64,000 nt of DNA from an uncultured Bdellovibrio sp. (GTDB taxonomy: Bacteria; Bdellovibrionota; Bdellovibrionia; Bdellovibrionales; Bdellovibrionaceae), in NCBI GenBank assembly GCA_963932905.1, contig CAWVRN010000012.1:32001-96000 (forward strand), given 5' to 3'. Below the pieces are notes generated by a model. That model made no database searches and was not told the origin of the DNA. It saw nothing but the letters and a program-made list of their open reading frames with translations. Made by a program: the position numbers and the translations under genes. Within the stretch, counting starts at the first letter, position 1. Every line of letters starts with the position of its first letter. This document shows, piece by piece, positions 18,585 to 25,835 of this stretch.

Positions 18585-18618
18585 AAGGCGATGCTTGGAT
18601 AAGCGTCGCTTTTTTTTT
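18585..18618 (+). terminator. Rho-independent terminator
   Basis: AAGGCGATGCTT-GGAT-AAGCGTCGCTT plus T-run. Confidence 0.88.
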
Positions 18619-18746
18619 GGATATGCTTAGATGTAGAAGTTAGGACTTGATCTGAAAGTCCCTGCAATTAGTTTATATATCGTCTGACGGTCATTGAAGT
18701 AATGGCACATATTGTACCGAGGCGCTGCTAGTGGTACGCTCATAAT

Positions 18747-19736
18747 ATGAGCGACAGAAAACTGATTTTTAAAAATGATCGTGCCGCCGCGGCGTTTGGC
18801 AAATTTCGGGATCGTATTTACTTCGAAATTTCAGCACAGAAAGGGAGCCGCTTCGCGAGCCATTCTACCTGGCTGAAAGCCATTTTCCTCTTTACGGGTT
18901 CGGTCGTAAGTTACTCTGAATTATTAGTAGGTGCTTCTAATCCTAAAACGTCGTTACTTTTGGGTTTGGTATCCGGGGTCTCGATTCTCCTTTTCGCACT
19001 GAATGCCTCTCACGATGCCGCTCACGGTGCATTCTCGCGGCATCCTTGGATTAATACCATCGTGCTCTACATCCCTTTTAGCATCCTTGGTGTTGATCCC
19101 GAAATGTGGCGGATAAGACATCTGAAATCGCTTCATAAATTCCCGAATATCGACCACTGCGATGCCGACATTGATGAAAATCCGTTTGTTCGCCTTTGAC
19201 CCAATCAGCCCAAAAAATGGTGGCACCGATTCCAGCACTGGTACGCGTGGTTTTTGTACTTGGTAGTCGCATTTCATGCCGCATGGATTTAAGACCTCAA
19301 TTATATGAAACGCGAAAGTCTTGCCAACATGGATGACTGGCACGAAAAAACACCCTCATGGATGCGATTCCTTACCCTCAAAGTTCCGCACGTTTTCGTC
19401 TTTTATGTTCTTCCACTCATTGGAACTCACTTTTCTAGCGAGGCCGTGTTTCCTAAGATCGTTAATGGTCACGTCGGCTGCAGCTACGTCTCTCATCAGT
19501 TAATCACAAGTGTGGACTGGTACCCTTTTTCACAATTTTGGTGTGGAATTATCGGTGGACTTAATGCTCATGCCGCTCATCACCTCTTTCCGAAAGTAAG
19601 TCACCGTCACTATTTTTGGATTTCCGGAGCCATCGGTGAGTTTTGCCGAGAAAATGATCTAGTTCACAATCATGTCGGCTTACTAAAGGCGATTCGCAGT
19701 CATTTCAATTTTTTGAAACACCTTTCGCGCAATTGA
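18747..19736 (+). pseudogene. Fatty acid desaturase (delta-6/acyl-CoA type) pseudogene
   Basis: His boxes HDAAH, HLKSLH (degenerate) and HAAHHLFP in one frame interrupted by TGA 19197-19199 and TAA 19290-19292. Confidence 0.88.
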
Positions 19737-20058
19737 TTGAGGCAAAGAACCATACATTCTGACTTCGATGCCGCCCGCACTTGCCTAGCTTTCTCGGCCA
19801 GACTATGGCGTTTACACGCCGCTTGGCCATCTCTACTTAGCTTTTTGAAGCCCCGGTATCGGAAAGAACGGCGAAGTTCCAGACCTCGCCCATCGCGGAT
19901 CGAAGTGCCATTCTCGGTTTCGTTTCTAGATCACTGACAATGAAATTCAATAGCCAATGTTTCATAGAACCGATTGGCATGGGCTCCGTGATTATTTCGA
20001 CACTGTCCAGTCATTAGAGCTCAGGTAAGCATATCCAGGCTGCGATAATTAAGTAGGG

Positions 20059-20397
20059 CTAGTAATCACACCAGCCATTGTAACTGTGATCATCAGAAAG
20101 TGCGCCAGTTTTCAGACTATAGCAGAACGACCTATAGGCAGCGAAACAATTTGGAGCACTGGGGTGTGGTTCGGCATTATAGTCTATACAACATGTGTAA
20201 GGATCAAGAGATCTAGTCTGACTATTATAGGCTGAAATAGCTTTAACAAAAGGACGAGGCTTTCGTAGAATTTCGTTTCTAGTGACTAAGAGAACTCTGT
20301 TTTTTACAGCGGGAGCTTTGCAAAACTCGTTTGCCCTGCAAATATTAACCCCTAAAATCACTAACATGATGTTTGCCAATAAGATTTCTTTTTTCAT
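20059..20397 (-). CDS. Small secreted Cys-rich hypothetical protein
   Basis: Signal peptide; AGGA RBS; directly downstream of the ABM gene. Confidence 0.6.
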   Translation of the reverse strand: MKKEILLANIMLVILGVNICRANEFCKAPAVKNRVLLVTRNEILRKPRPFVKAISAYNSQTRSLDPYTCCIDYNAEPHPSAPNCFAAYRSFCYSLKTGALSDDHSYNGWCDY

Positions 20398-20416
20398 TTT
20401 TCGTCCTAATAGGTTT

Positions 20417-20815
20417 TTAATTAATAATCTGAACGGTTTGGCCTTTTACCTCGAAAGAGTCCAAAAACGAGTCTGCTGAGTTGGCTTTAATTTCGTTAAA
20501 AAATTTCCGCATATGTTCCGATTTTTCTTTATGCTCAATAAGCATAGCTTCTTTGCTTTTCCAAATTTCATGAAATTCAAATCGATTAGTTGCTTTCCCG
20601 TGTTCATCTATAATTTGGTACCCATAGTAGGAAATACAGCTGGCTTCCTTACGAGTGGGTTCGATGATTTTGGATACCGCTCTTTTAAATTCTTTTAGTT
20701 TTTCTGGCTTTACGACTAAAATTGCTGAGCCTTGCCATACCGTCTCCGCATGAGAGATGTTTGTCGTCATCACCCCAAATATTATTAGTAAAATATTCAC
20801 TACTTTCATTTTCAC
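20417..20815 (-). CDS. Antibiotic biosynthesis monooxygenase (ABM/YgiN-like) domain protein with signal peptide
   Basis: VKPEK..EF...TRKEASCISY...F.FHEIW.S...H....H pattern; AAGGAG RBS. Confidence 0.85.
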   Translation of the reverse strand: MKMKVVNILLIIFGVMTTNISHAETVWQGSAILVVKPEKLKEFKRAVSKIIEPTRKEASCISYYGYQIIDEHGKATNRFEFHEIWKSKEAMLIEHKEKSEHMRKFFNEIKANSADSFLDSFEVKGQTVQIIN

Positions 20816-20899
20816 TCCTTGTTAGAAAATCCATTTACATTTACCTGAATGGTCTGTAAATCAGTATAAATAGAACAAAGTTATAAGGAAATTTCGAAT

Positions 20900-21790
20900 A
20901 TGATCACTTTTGATAGACTCCGTTATTTTGTTGAAGTAGCGACCACCGAGCACGTAGGTAATGCTGCCAAGATATTAGCAATAAGTCCGAGCGTAATTAG
21001 TTCGGCGATTCGCGAACTAGAGGAAGAGTTTGAATGCCAATTATTTGCTCGCCAGAAGCAACGAATTAAATTAACGGAACGAGGTCAAGTTCTTCTCGAA
21101 AAGGCTAGAGGCATTTTGAAAGAAACAAATCAGCTCTACAATGATATCTCGGCTGAAAATTTTAAATTTAAAGGACACTATAAAGTTGGAGCGAGTCACT
21201 TCCTCATGCAGGAGTATTTAATTCCAGTCTTTCTTGAAATTCAGCGAGATCATCCACAGCTCACAATTGAATTCATTTCACTTGATGCTGGAGTCGCCGT
21301 GTCTCATTTGCTTTCAGGAGAACTGGATGCCGCACTTATTTTTAGATCTTCATACTATAATGAGCTAGAAGAGACAGTTCTCTATAATGGGCAGTTCCAA
21401 ATTGCCTTAAGGAAAAACCATCCTATTTTTAAATTACCTAGCAGTATGATCAGCAAAAGCCTAAATGAATTACCAGCAATTACATTTAGAACTTTTGCAG
21501 GTCCTAATTTTTGGGAAAATCATCCTGCATTTAAAGATATTGGACTTACCCCAAGGCATGCTTATTTTTATGGCGATACGCAAGCAGCCCTTCAGCTTTT
21601 AAAGTCGACTGATGGGTGGGCCTTTTTGCCTGATAAGATTATCAATAAGCATAAGAGTATTCGTAAAGTGAGTCTAACCCGCGTATTAAAGGCGCCAGTC
21701 AATATCTCATTTGTAACAAAGAAGGAGCGCGCTAATAAATTCATCGATCATTTAAAAGGCGTTCTGCAATCAAAGATTAAAAAGTACTAA
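20900..21790 (+). CDS. LysR-family transcriptional regulator
   Basis: N-terminal HTH (LRYFVEVA...AA..L.IS.S.IS..IRELEEE...LF.R); 296 aa; divergent from ABM gene. Confidence 0.95.
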   Translation: MITFDRLRYFVEVATTEHVGNAAKILAISPSVISSAIRELEEEFECQLFARQKQRIKLTERGQVLLEKARGILKETNQLYNDISAENFKFKGHYKVGASHFLMQEYLIPVFLEIQRDHPQLTIEFISLDAGVAVSHLLSGELDAALIFRSSYYNELEETVLYNGQFQIALRKNHPIFKLPSSMISKSLNELPAITFRTFAGPNFWENHPAFKDIGLTPRHAYFYGDTQAALQLLKSTDGWAFLPDKIINKHKSIRKVSLTRVLKAPVNISFVTKKERANKFIDHLKGVLQSKIKKY

Positions 21791-21993
21791 TTAAAATGCG
21801 TTTCAATTCATCCAGGTCGAACCTTGCTGACCAGGCCAAAGTGAAATAACGTCACTCTGCCAGACCTGGCTGACCTTACAAATATGTGCCATTCTATCGT
21901 TTTGAGATTTGAGGTAAATGGCGGGATAATTTCCGCCATCGTCCAGTTATGAATGCCCAATCAAATTGTTCGACTAGTGAGAAATAGGTAGAA

Positions 21994-22410
21994 TTATTGG
22001 ACCTGACATGAGAGTGATGTTGAGACGAGGTAGTTGCTTTTATCTTCTAATTTATTAAAGAACTGTGCGGCACCGGTTTGTTTGTCAATTTTTAGTGCCC
22101 GGATGGCTTTTGAACAAGAAGGATTTATGGGCGTATGTTTGGGACACCATACATATGTTAATTCTAGAGTGGAAGGAGTCTCAACTTCCGCTATTTTTTG
22201 TAAATCCATATAGACCGGAGTTTTAAAGGGCGGATTAGCTATAGTTACATAAAGATCTGCCTCTAATCCATAGGTTTTAAATATCTCTGGTTGTACATTG
22301 GTGATTTCAGTCTTTTCGTTATAAACAATACCCTTACAATGAAGTGAATTAATGCTCGCATAACTTATTCCAGCACTAATAAATACGATAATACCTAAAA
22401 TTGATTTCAT
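21994..22410 (-). CDS. Secreted hypothetical protein
   Basis: GGAGG RBS; signal peptide SYA-S; L.C...LSC termini. Confidence 0.7.
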   Translation of the reverse strand: MKSILGIIVFISAGISYASINSLHCKGIVYNEKTEITNVQPEIFKTYGLEADLYVTIANPPFKTPVYMDLQKIAEVETPSTLELTYVWCPKHTPINPSCSKAIRALKIDKQTGAAQFFNKLEDKSNYLVSTSLSCQVQ

Positions 22411-22717
22411 ACATCCTCCAAGTATAAATTGTTCCTGTGCAAGGGTTACTGGTCAACGAAAGAATGATTAACACGAAATTAATGTCATCTCGCCTAAGCT
22501 TTCCTGATCACCTTTATGCGAAATAAGCGGGAAACTACTTAACTGGGCGTTCTATTCAACAAGTGCCTTATTATTTCCGATTGCTCGATGAAATCGAAAC
22601 CTCGTATAAGAAGTGTCAGATCAAGTCCTAACTTCTACAGCTTAGATGATACAATCCCAGTCTACATGACCGAACCAAATCCATCAGCCTCACTCCCGCA
22701 AGACCAACCATCATTCC

Positions 22718-23263
22718 CTAATGATGTTTCTTATGCAACAAATTTTCCGTATAAGCCAGCATCACCGAGCTCAGTAGAAAAACCACATGTATGATCACTT
22801 GCCACATGATTTGATCTTGGGATTTGTCTTTAATATTGATGAAAGATTTTAATAGGTGAATACCGGAAATTCCGACTAGGGCAGTTGCTAGTTTTACCTT
22901 CAGGGCACCGGCGTCGATTTTATCTAGCCAGTCGGGTTTGTCGGCGTGGCCTTGCAGATCGATACGACTGACAAATGTGGCGTATCCGCCGATGATGACC
23001 ATCACCAAAAGGTTTGCGACCATTGTGATATCTACCAATGTCAGCACGCCTAACATCAGTACTTCTTCGGTGATTGTGTTTACCGTGGAAACCAAATGAA
23101 TCAATTCGATCAAAAATTTATAGGCATACAGCACGCCGGCGACGATTAGTCCAACATACAGGGGAGCTTGAAACCAGCGGCTGGAAAAAATTAGGTTTTC
23201 TAATGCGGATTCGAATTGTTTTTTCATGGGTCTATACAAATCTAATTCGGTGTCGTTTGTCAA
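22718..23263 (-). CDS. UPF0114/TIGR00645 (YqhA-like) membrane protein
   Basis: SRWFQAPLYVGL, GGYATFVSRID, LKVKLA..ISGIHLL. Confidence 0.9.
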   Translation of the reverse strand: MTNDTELDLYRPMKKQFESALENLIFSSRWFQAPLYVGLIVAGVLYAYKFLIELIHLVSTVNTITEEVLMLGVLTLVDITMVANLLVMVIIGGYATFVSRIDLQGHADKPDWLDKIDAGALKVKLATALVGISGIHLLKSFINIKDKSQDQIMWQVIIHVVFLLSSVMLAYTENLLHKKHH

Positions 23264-23272
23264 AATAATATT

Positions 23273-24796
23273 TTATTTCGTGATTGTGCTTTTTAATTTT
23301 TCTGCGGCAGCGAAAATGGTTTTCTTTTTCTTTGAATCCATTTTTTCAACTGTGCGGGCCATCATCGACAGGCGTGGATTCTTTAAAAAGAAAGCCTTAT
23401 GTTTTTCTATAAATCCCCAATACAAACCGTCCACACCATCACACCATGGCTCACTGGCTTTATAACCACCCATTTTACGATAGTAGTTGGAACCACAGAA
23501 ATAAGGTTTTGTCGCAAATATCCCTCCGTCAGCGAATAAGGCCATGCCATAAACATTCGGTCCCATCACCCAATCAGAACTATCGATAAACATTTCCATA
23601 AACCATTTGTGAGCCTCTGTTGGGTCAACCTCTAAAAGTAACATAAGGCTTCCGATGATCATCAATCGTTCGATATGGTGAGCATAACCATAGCGAACAG
23701 TTTTTCGAATCGCGTGATCCAGCGGCGCCACCCCCGTGTTTCCCTTGTACCAATGATCCGTTAGTTTTCTGTTGTGCTTGAAGAAATTAGTGGACTCTTG
23801 TTTTTCAGAATAATTTTGATAGATGCCTCGGATGAATTCACGCCATCCAATCACTTGGCGAATGAATCCTTCGGTTGATGCGATTGGTATTTTGTTGTCT
23901 TTGGCATACGCTAGTGTTTCCTGCACCACTTCCGATGGTGTCAGCAGCCCTGTGTTTAAAAAAGGCGTTAACACCGAATGAAAAACAAAATCGCTGTGTT
24001 GGGGGATCGCATCTTCGTACGGGCCAAATTGCAGCAAACGATCGTCTAAGAATCGTTTTAGCCAAGCCTTGGCCCCTTTACGATCCACGGGTAGCCAAAA
24101 ATTTTGCGACTGTCCCGGGTGTTTAGAAAATAACTCGTCCGTGATTTTGATCACATCCCAAGTGATATCGCTGGTCCTTACCAAAGGTACATCTGGTGGC
24201 ACTATTTTATCTGGCAGAGCCAATCGGTTGTCGACGTCAAAACTCCATTGTCCACCGACGGGTTGGTCATTTTTATCCACCAATATTTTCAAACGTTTTC
24301 TTTGTTGTTCATAAAACGTTTTCATAAACGGCTTTTTAGTTTTGCCGAGATAGTTTTTAAATTCAGTCCGTCCCGTTAGAAACATAGGACTAGGTAAAAC
24401 GGTTACATTCAATTTTAATCGGCTAAAGAGTTTCATCAGTCGTGTTTCGAAAAACTTGTCCTCTATTTCAAAGATAGAAACCGAGGTGATTTTTTTTGAC
24501 GTTATGAATGTCTCGAGTGATTTTTCATAAGATCCAGAATCTGGTGCGAGTTTTTCATAGTGAACGGCGATTTTTTTTGAAGTCAGCTCTTGGGCAAAGG
24601 TTCTCATCGCCGCAAGGAAAAAAATAATTTTGTGCTTATGAAACTTGTAATAGGTGCACAGTTCTTGATCTTCGCGCATAAACACATAATCAATATTTTC
24701 CAAATCGGTTTGGGCTGCTTTTAAGTCAAACAATTGGTTTCCTAGAATGACCAAAAGTGATTTTGATTTCGACGTGTCAGTTGAAAGTGTTTTCAT
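23273..24796 (-). CDS. Cryptochrome/photolyase-related protein (PhrB-like bacterial 6-4 photolyase group)
   Basis: ILGNQLF, HKHKI, GGQWSFD..NR, FGPYEDA, GYAHHIERLM, ATKPY. Confidence 0.92.
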   Translation of the reverse strand: MKTLSTDTSKSKSLLVILGNQLFDLKAAQTDLENIDYVFMREDQELCTYYKFHKHKIIFFLAAMRTFAQELTSKKIAVHYEKLAPDSGSYEKSLETFITSKKITSVSIFEIEDKFFETRLMKLFSRLKLNVTVLPSPMFLTGRTEFKNYLGKTKKPFMKTFYEQQRKRLKILVDKNDQPVGGQWSFDVDNRLALPDKIVPPDVPLVRTSDITWDVIKITDELFSKHPGQSQNFWLPVDRKGAKAWLKRFLDDRLLQFGPYEDAIPQHSDFVFHSVLTPFLNTGLLTPSEVVQETLAYAKDNKIPIASTEGFIRQVIGWREFIRGIYQNYSEKQESTNFFKHNRKLTDHWYKGNTGVAPLDHAIRKTVRYGYAHHIERLMIIGSLMLLLEVDPTEAHKWFMEMFIDSSDWVMGPNVYGMALFADGGIFATKPYFCGSNYYRKMGGYKASEPWCDGVDGLYWGFIEKHKAFFLKNPRLSMMARTVEKMDSKKKKTIFAAAEKLKSTITK

Positions 24797-24902
24797 AAGA
24801 AATTTGTCCTTTGCCAGGGATCAGACTATACTAGCAGAGCAGAAAAGATGACAATTCTCTAATCAAATTGTGATATAGCAAACCGGATCTGGATTGGCTC
24901 AC

Positions 24903-25835
24903 TTAACGATAAAAATTCACACATGAATTGTTTTGTTTTAAAACTTTCTCAAAACGTTTCATGAAAATCGAGGGATGATCGGTTGTAATTCCAGCCACGC
25001 CCATCGCAATTAGTTTATCGGCAGCTTCGGGATCATTCACTGTCCAAGGATTCACATCGATATTTCGGGCTCGAAGATAGGCGATCGAGTCCGAAGTCAG
25101 GTCTTGCCAATTCGGTGCAAATGCAATCGGCTGAAAGTCTTTGATGGCTGATTGAAAATCAATTTTTGTCCAGTCGCCGCGATCGACAAGAAGAATGCGG
25201 GGAATAGCCGGTTGGTGTTTTCGAAACTCAGTTAAAACGTCCCAATTGAAAGCCCGAGCGATGATGGGTGTTTTGATTTTAACTTTGTTAATCACGTCAG
25301 AGGTCGCTTTGGCTAGTTCGGCCATGGGAGCTGATTCGTGAAGAAATTCTTTTTCACTTTTGATTTCAAGATGCAGAGGAATGGCAGGTAGGCCTTGTGA
25401 TTCACGGGCTTGGACAGCTAGAAGAAATTCTTCAAAGGTAATAACCTTCGTGTCGCCCGGTTTTGTAACTAAGTGGTCCGAGTAGGGGATCTGTTTAATT
25501 TGAGTCAGGGTCAAGTCTTTGATCAATACAGGCTCAGTCAGTCCCAAAAAGTCTTCGGGATTTAATTTATAATCATGATAAATTACGGGAACGCCGTCTT
25601 TGGTCAGGTGAACATCGAATTCCACACTAGACGCCTTGATATCCATCGCGTGGATCAATGCCGACATGGAATTTTCACGGTAGGTAAGCCGATCGCCTCG
25701 ATGCGCTGAAATTTCCCAAAAATGTGGGCTGCTATGAGCAGGGGTAGTCAGCCCAAGCCACAACAAGATAGAAATTAATTTGTGCACAATCTTCCTCAAG
25801 GGAATTACTATAGCAAATTTGGATTTGTCTTTCAT
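24903..25835 (-). CDS. Glycerophosphodiester phosphodiesterase
   Basis: AHRG, EN, EFDVHLTKDG..VI.HD, LEIK, WTVN, ITTD; true start may be the GTG at VHKLIS. Confidence 0.92.
   Translation of the reverse strand: MKDKSKFAIVIPLRKIVHKLISILLWLGLTTPAHSSPHFWEISAHRGDRLTYRENSMSALIHAMDIKASSVEFDVHLTKDGVPVIYHDYKLNPEDFLGLTEPVLIKDLTLTQIKQIPYSDHLVTKPGDTKVITFEEFLLAVQARESQGLPAIPLHLEIKSEKEFLHESAPMAELAKATSDVINKVKIKTPIIARAFNWDVLTEFRKHQPAIPRILLVDRGDWTKIDFQSAIKDFQPIAFAPNWQDLTSDSIAYLRARNIDVNPWTVNDPEAADKLIAMGVAGITTDHPSIFMKRFEKVLKQNNSCVNFYR

Follow-up and report, generated by a model that had tools for sequence, protein, structure and literature searches.

The IS481-ended element and its cargo

A 64,000-nucleotide stretch of DNA from an uncultured Bdellovibrio sp. 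(GenBank assembly GCA_963932905.1, contig CAWVRN010000012.1; hereafter the window, its genome being G000) contains a 4008-bp element at positions 18632-22639. The element has IS481-type terminal inverted repeats (TIRs) and, as the original prediction had noted, no transposase gene. Its genes lie between arms of about 100 bp that start at six-base cores, and sequence comparison indicates that cassette copies are exchanged at these cores. The features, in coordinates of the window, are as follows.

18585..18612, plus strand: host terminator-like hairpin, directly upstream of the insertion
18625..18631, plus strand: left copy of the 7-bp target duplication GCTTAGA, single in the empty allele
18632..18702, plus strand: left end piece, with the 24-bp IS481-type TIR, a second TCTGAC motif and the outer half of the first core
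18703..18708, plus strand: core TGGCAC, B type, arm deleted; 10 bp to the gene leader, compared with 177 bp in G003
18747..19736, plus strand: fatty-acid desaturase pseudogene of cassette 1, damaged, in two Pfam-matching pieces
19809..19910, minus strand: B arm, core 19905-19910; 98% identical over 104 bp to an arm of contig C20 whose outer flank differs
19911..19950: spacer of 40 bp separating two cores; in G003, other arms are joined by a close relative of it
19951..20050, plus strand: A arm, core TAGCCA at 19951-19956, downstream end of cassette 2
20059..20397, minus strand: 112-aa open reading frame (ORF), no Pfam match
20417..20815, minus strand: ABM-domain protein (PF03992)
20900..21790, plus strand: LysR-family regulator (PF00126, PF03466)
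21796..21891, minus strand: B arm of cassette 2, core 21886-21891
21886..21985, plus strand: A arm of cassette 3, in tandem (A/B) with the B arm of cassette 2, the two having one core, 21886-21891, between them
21994..22410, minus strand: 138-aa ORF of cassette 3, probable exported protein; no Pfam match, 71% DNA match in G001
22470..22568, minus strand: B arm of cassette 3, core AGGCAC at 22563-22568
22569..22639, minus strand: right end piece with the 24-bp TIR at 22616-22639; 27 bases equal the left end of a resident IS481
22640..22646, plus strand: right copy of the target duplication GCTTAGA

The outer boundaries agree with those proposed originally. The TIRs (18632-18655 and 22616-22639) are complementary at 24 of 24 bases and run TGT...ACA, the 7-bp duplication is present on both sides, and the insertion lies just past the terminator-like hairpin. 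No remnant of a transposase or recombinase was detected within the element, either by tblastn with two resident transposases and the recombinase described below (best E 0.17) or by a Pfam scan. The outer element is a mobile insertion cassette (MIC), a known kind of element.

The gene content given in the original prediction also stands, but five recombination-site-like cores with arms had been overlooked, at 18703 (B, arm deleted), 19905 (B), 19951 (A), 21886 (A and B sharing one) and 22563 (B). Its interpretation as a mobile cassette is supported but incomplete, the cargo being apparently an array of separately exchanged cassettes with a site family of their own. Behind each TIR, a piece of about 70 bp ends in a hexamer and is followed by an arm of about 100 bp. 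Read from the right, the order is TIR, B, 138-aa ORF, A/B, the LysR-ABM-112-aa unit, A, the 40-bp spacer and B. The A arm at 21886..21985 has an arm score of 38, against a background maximum of 2.8. Signal peptides of the 112-aa and 138-aa ORFs were judged by eye, and no family was found for either in Pfam and atlas searches. The leftmost part of the array is the damaged desaturase cassette, in the opposite orientation. In G003 the desaturase is intact (358 aa, 91-93% DNA identity) and sits in a B-gene-A cassette at another locus; compared with it, the window copy has stop codons at 19197-19199 and 19290-19292, a deletion of 29 codons and a His-box change. The layout B-gene-A/A-gene-B observed in C2 is likely the intact form of this leftmost part, and the gene that belonged to the B arm at 19809..19910 appears to have been deleted.

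The predicted affinity to IS481 was confirmed. G000 contains two 1224-bp insertion sequence (IS) copies, 85% alike and each with a 348-aa ORF; the copy scanned passes the IS481 model NF033577 (269 bits, cut-off 224), and an intact IS481 was located at C3:190772. The 4.55-Mb genome contains the exact 24-mer TIR three times: at the two ends of the element and at the left end of this IS481. Both element ends, as had been suggested, are of one type, sharing 24 and 27 identical bases with that left end compared with 10-11 for the other three IS ends. About ten further TIR-bounded units with other cargo were found in the genome. The 7 bases flanking 42 TIR ends show symmetry around the central one (T at -5 in 36, A at -3 in 36), as a 7-bp target would give; duplications of the IS481 family span 2-15 bp and are mostly 6 bp (PMC10045372, in excerpt). 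The two autonomous IS481 copies have no flanking duplication, and no arm or core site was found in them or at their ends. From the identity of the ends, the resident IS481 transposase likely moved the element in trans; this part of the original prediction, like the proposed recent insertion, is supported.

A DDE transposase gene on C20 was rejected as the autonomous partner, scoring 31 bits on NF033577 and apparently having its own short inverted repeats (by eye). This weakly IS481-like gene lies inside a cassette at the distal end of a B arm (L041, G000:C20:39832-41046). Two further loci bear traces of IS481. At L049:7315-7386 in G001, a 72-bp miniature inverted-repeat transposable element consists of two IS481 left ends and has no duplication outside. 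At L036 (G000:C7:100071-100157), a cassette element abuts an 86-bp remnant of the IS481 right end; this join recurs as loose ends in metagenome runs X1-X3, and in X1 the A arm that follows the core is a different one.

The empty site was found in one metagenome contig, from one of the four runs (X2; depth 5.97). This contig proceeds from 18617 through 11 letters ending in GGATAT to one GCTTAGA at 22640, skipping the element. It is one line of evidence, with a short side of only 30 letters, yet the junction is as predicted. The relatives G003 and G006, of other species, were rejected as clean empty alleles: both join 18616 to about 24910-24930, so that a larger block of 6.3 kb, including the next two genes, is absent at the locus. 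These genes, UPF0114 and photolyase-related, lie to the right of the element at 22647-24900. Because they are missing at the G003 and G006 locus, the insertion site appears to sit on an older gain or rearrangement.

Cassette arms and exchange at the core

What distinguishes the cargo units from ordinary passengers? Each lies between two inverted arms of about 100 bp, of which the B type begins with TGGCAC and the A type with TGGCCA. In both types, TTATTTC is conserved at about +40 and an inverted variant of it at about +70, and the sequence separating these motifs is free; the half-sites are GAAATAA and TTATTTC or ATATTT. In G000, 25 arms were detected at E<0.01 (best E in the reversed genome, 0.13), and a matrix scan gave 23 sites compared with none in 2.49 Mb of reversed sequence. 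A pattern with the right motif spacing matched eight times, and eight other spacings matched 0-1 times. Profile scans of G000 and of fetched loci yielded 103 distinct sites in about 20 Bdellovibrio-like genomes. The distribution is patchy: a loose pattern has 4-8 matches in 7 of the 251 genomes of the order (controls, 0-2), and most genomes of the order have 0-1. In genus g49, a diverged A arm (27 hits) closes B-gene cassettes, with no TIR detected.

A cassette consists of a B arm, one or more genes and an inverted A arm, and measures about 0.55-3 kb. The site next to a B arm is an inverted A arm in 48 of 75 cases, at a distance of 556-2955 bp, and a contig end cuts off a further six. The first ORF is directed away from the B arm in 56 of 71. 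The cargo includes glyoxalases, GNAT proteins, methyltransferases, proteases, an arsenic operon, toxin-antitoxin (TA) pairs and many genes without a known family.

Exchange at the core was observed in a breakpoint comparison of 102 sites. Nine pairs with similar arms were found to have an identity of 0.88 just inside the core and 0.43 just outside (background 0.44), 26 pairs with similar outer flanks showed 0.84 outside the core and the background level inside, and no pair was similar on both sides; the pairs were picked for one-sided similarity and come from related genomes, so that the figures should be read as a pattern and not as probabilities. In six pairs, the same outer flank is joined once to an A and once to a B arm, the switch occurring after TGGC. 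One spacer is near-identical in L016, L052 and L100 and has different arms on both sides. G071 and G147 share, at unrelated loci, a cassette of about 0.76 kb whose 95% identity stops at both cores; at the locus where G071 has it, G099 has a different cassette.

At the core, arms abut other arms, TIR pieces, short spacers or a recombinase module. Across a B core, an A arm follows in 3 of 64 cases and a B arm in none, and four A/A junctions each share one TGGCCA; these junction counts omit two borderline rows (L102 at -3.7 and L021 at 1.1). Two cores, TGGCCA and TGGGCA (L102, C2), have no arm on either side.

Several other identities of the arms were considered and rejected. They are neither structured RNA nor attC sites: consensus pairs are absent in 38 arms, six junctions fold at z values of -1.7 to +1.0, and the arms have no Rfam match. 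A scan for sigma-70 promoters was at chance level (11 compared with 9.7), and the GG-N10-GC spacing of sigma-54 promoters does not fit. Ends of DDE transposons are likewise rejected, there being no duplication outside the cores and abutting arms sharing one core. No description of the site family was found in the literature searched, with most subscription papers outside its coverage, or in the excerpts of PMC12642874.

Other genes were noted beside the sites. HNH or DUF222-HNH genes of 318-353 aa adjoin cores in different genomes (L047:887-1843, L058:4639-5598, L164:5381-6397 and L262:601-1659), and a Y1-type transposase gene, with many copies in G071, G099 and G147, lies beside a B core in genus g49 (L167:3728-4234). 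An integrase and helix-turn-helix gene at L048 form a phage-type pair. One intergenic spot of g49 (L248-L252) holds differing inserts of 0, 2.6, 2.7, 3.1 and 10.8 kb in five genomes, with A- and B-arm cassettes only in that of G057.

The linked Xer-like recombinase and the proposed mechanism

A tyrosine recombinase of 318 aa heads the arrays in L051 and L052. A cassette array beside the recombinase and a core was found in these two loci and in L100, L102, L105 and L098, not in the genome of the window. The catalytic R-K-H-R-H-Y residues are conserved across 28 aligned relatives. The protein scores far below the XerC, XerD and IntI cut-offs (62 bits on TIGR02249, the IntI model, against 265), and its predicted structure suggests an Xer-like fold of two domains, with no additional domain for arm binding, the C-terminus being of low confidence. 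Among 103 database matches, 86 are at least 48% identical to it, and the titles of the close matches name Pseudobdellovibrionaceae, Oligoflexia and Bdellovibrio assemblies. Close relatives of the recombinase were found neither in viral contigs (8 loci, 24-31%) nor on plasmids (36 records, all <60%, best among the matches listed 28-30%), and no plasmid matched the A/B junction.

Sites accompany this gene on both sides. A B core lies 66-91 bp past the recombinase stop at 11 of 27 distinct loci, and at seven loci (including L098) an A core lies on the far side of an upstream TA-like gene pair, at a distance of about 680-870 bp. Sites were detected at 9 of 51 close-clade recombinase loci and at none of 20 control loci. 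L102:675-7188 is a complete TIR-bounded unit in which the recombinase and TA-like pair are accompanied by an arsenic-resistance operon as a cassette, with no transposase.

We consider it probable, on the sequence comparisons, that the window holds a transposase-free IS481-ended carrier, likely moved in trans, whose cassettes have been swapped at the core by an Xer-like recombinase absent from the assembly. The broader proposal, to which we give about an even chance, is that this is a third cassette platform, operating in Bdellovibrionales, in which the arrays are spread by IS481-type ends and a dedicated Xer-like recombinase inserts circular single-gene cassettes, each flanked by two accessory arms in double-stranded form, in both orientations at the centre of short TGGCCA targets. 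In the reading considered probable, a cassette would excise as a circle with the attP-like junction A arm-TGGCAC-B arm, and the circle would insert, in a lambda-like manner, at the centre of a short attB-like dyad target (GAAATAA-TGGCCA-TTATTTC-like), yielding outer/B and A/outer ends. The right end would remain a usable palindromic target, so that later cassettes could join in tandem (A/B) or reversed (A/A), whereas B/B junctions would not be expected. Recognition would take place on double-stranded DNA, given that the sites show no folding, and the arm motifs at about +40 and +70, which repeat the core half-site, would serve there as accessory binding sites. IS481 ends would then carry whole arrays. 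In the window, the array would have been built first, cassette 1 would have decayed, and the whole unit would have been transposed recently.

Besides the one-sided selection of the breakpoint pairs, several observations weigh against this reading. The recombinase was not found in G000 (best match, 25% identity) and is present in 3 of 10 genomes of the genus; G057, G071, G099, G147 and G063, with 4-7 site matches each, have no recombinase match. A downstream core is lacking at 16 of the 27 recombinase loci, including nearly all of those below 69% identity, and no recognisable sites accompany distant members. The absence of the gene from site-rich genomes could reflect loss, unassembled repeats or a different enzyme. 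The next site is another B arm for 13 of the 75 B arms, and no site follows in eight. Comparison of sibling genomes did not yield a clean empty target in which both flanks are kept; the sibling that is empty at L166 is also missing 70-80 bp on the outer side of each core. An empty TIR-core-TIR unit was not found in 390 genomes, where the scan returned seven rows in five genomes and the four loci inspected were not TIR-bounded. No cassette circle was found. Finally, hybrid cores, with TGG from outside and CAC or xxx from the cassette, indicate a crossover close to the middle of the hexamer; this position suits the 2-bp stagger of a serine-type enzyme better than the textbook 6-bp stagger of tyrosine enzymes; TnpI, for example, cuts with a 6-bp stagger (PMC2847244, in excerpt). 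Close relatives of the recombinase were found neither in viral contigs (8 loci, 24-31%) nor on plasmids (36 records, all <60%, best among the matches listed 28-30%), and no plasmid matched the A/B junction.

The central crossover is one reason to consider an alternative in which the cassettes are real and the core is exchanged by an unlinked serine recombinase or by a host enzyme, namely a chromosomal XerD-like protein as for the Acinetobacter dif modules, the linked Xer-like gene being a passenger module. The core layout, 11-6-11 and ATAA-N6-TTAT-like, fits such a scheme, as does the lack of a linked recombinase in G000 and several site-rich genomes. G000 encodes an XerD-like protein (288 bits, cut-off 330) and ten PF00589 genes; a host dif scan gave counts equal to the control and identified no dif site. 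However, cores flank the recombinase module on either side at fixed distances in independent loci and are never seen at control recombinases, the sites are patchy across the order, and neither a resolvase nor an IS110 enzyme was found among 138 neighbouring proteins, which include one PF07508 fragment and two unrelated integrases. Arm-arm junctions also violate the C/D alternation of dif modules described in excerpts of PMC13141974. Overall, this alternative is considered unlikely.

A still less probable explanation is that the sites resolve cointegrates of a replicative IS481-type transposon, like the internal recombination site (IRS) used by TnpI in Tn4430, and that the mosaics are by-products of inter-site exchange without circles. 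Although a core with one-sided accessory repeats over about 100 bp is the IRS layout (PMC2847244, in excerpt), such a role needs one site per element, whereas here each gene has two inverted, unlike arms and an element has up to five or six cores. TA pairs directly upstream of the recombinase recall Tn3-family resolution modules with documented res exchange (PMC7157771, in excerpt), and L102 is complete as a TIR-bounded unit with the recombinase, but the g49 genus has the same cassettes with no TIR detected and the autonomous IS481 copies have no site.

That the element is an ordinary MIC as defined in excerpts of PMC4337579, its arms being promoter/terminator elements or inert leftovers of longer IS ends that homologous recombination and deletion have shuffled, is very improbable: cassette 1 of the window was indeed rearranged away from a core, and a two-cassette segment of C2 is inverted in run X4 within 97 identical bases (weak evidence that may reflect homologous recombination or an assembly join), but this explanation is already contradicted by the sharp two-sided breakpoints at the hexamer and by the G071/G147 cassette, and it does not accommodate arm-arm junctions in which one core is common to both arms, motifs whose spacing is fixed although the sequence between them is free, cassettes of another family that lack TIRs or autonomous IS ends that contain no arm.

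Relation to known systems and significance

The following comparisons draw on excerpts of the cited sources. In its outer form, the element resembles the MICs of Xanthomonas and Bacillus cereus, in which passengers lie between IS-type inverted repeats with a target duplication and no transposase, the cognate transposase being elsewhere in the genome (PMC4337579); unlike these, it has ends of the IS481 type, and an array of separately exchanged cassettes with internal sites of one family makes up its cargo. With the IS481 family it shares the TGT...ACA ends and a duplication within 2-15 bp (PMC10045372), and an intact 348-aa transposase is present in the 1224-bp copies. It differs in having a 7-bp rather than the commonest 6-bp duplication (PMC10045372), two left-type ends and end pieces of about 70 bp that run into a recombination core.

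The arrays are reminiscent of integrons (PMC8618304, PMC8138268) in their mostly single-gene cassettes, in a tyrosine recombinase with an adjacent primary site, in arrays without a recombinase (compare the clusters of attC sites lacking integron-integrases, CALINs), in their carriage on transposons and in similar cargo (glyoxalase, GNAT, methyltransferase, TA and many unknowns). However, they have no IntI and no folded attC; each cassette has two different inverted arms, insertion would occur in either orientation, and sites lie at both ends of the recombinase module. None of the simple-recombinase subgroups in the excerpts of PMC8138268 has these sites. Acinetobacter dif modules (PMC13141974) likewise comprise genes between inverted sites with a 6-bp centre, undergo single-module replacement and include TA modules. 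Unlike in dif modules, no XerD consensus arm is present and the half-sites differ from the pdif table of that source; the accessory arms of about 100 bp, the two fixed core types, the linked recombinase and the A/A and A/B junctions that break C/D alternation are further differences.

TnpI/IRS of Tn4430 offers the closest arrangement of a simple tyrosine recombinase and a core with accessory half-site copies, within about 100-116 bp (PMC2847244), and the TA pair upstream of the recombinase matches TA-bearing Tn3 resolution modules (PMC7157771). Here, in contrast, there are many sites per element, inverted pairs surround genes, the ends are of the IS481 and not the Tn3 type, and cassettes also occur outside transposons. 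Cis-mobilizable elements (CIMEs; PMC5704250) are comparable as units without a recombinase that have attL/attR ends and grow in tandem at a regenerated site, the att roles of the present arms being putative. CIMEs are decayed integrative and conjugative or mobilizable elements at a host gene, whereas dozens of small, uniform cassettes with unrelated genes are found here, and their targets lie in IS ends and spacers, not in a host gene. No conjugation gene was found among 171 scanned cassette and neighbour proteins, except one FtsK gene beside a weak site. This weak A-like site (L038, G000:C11:56943-57012) and its FtsK-family neighbour are possibly on an integrated element.

The outer IS481-ended carrier is by itself ordinary. 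The new part is the inner cassette system, in which exchange is seen as a sequence pattern from which a mechanism may be inferred. Integrons and dif modules are the two established ways in which bacteria stockpile and reorder single-gene cassettes. If the proposal is correct, a third, unrelated site family goes unseen by programs that search for attC or pdif sites. Such a family would account for some of the turnover of accessory genes in predatory bacteria, including that of proteases, small exported unknowns, detoxification enzymes, the arsenic operon and TA pairs. It would also provide a small recombinase whose natural substrates are defined and whose crossover is, unusually, central.

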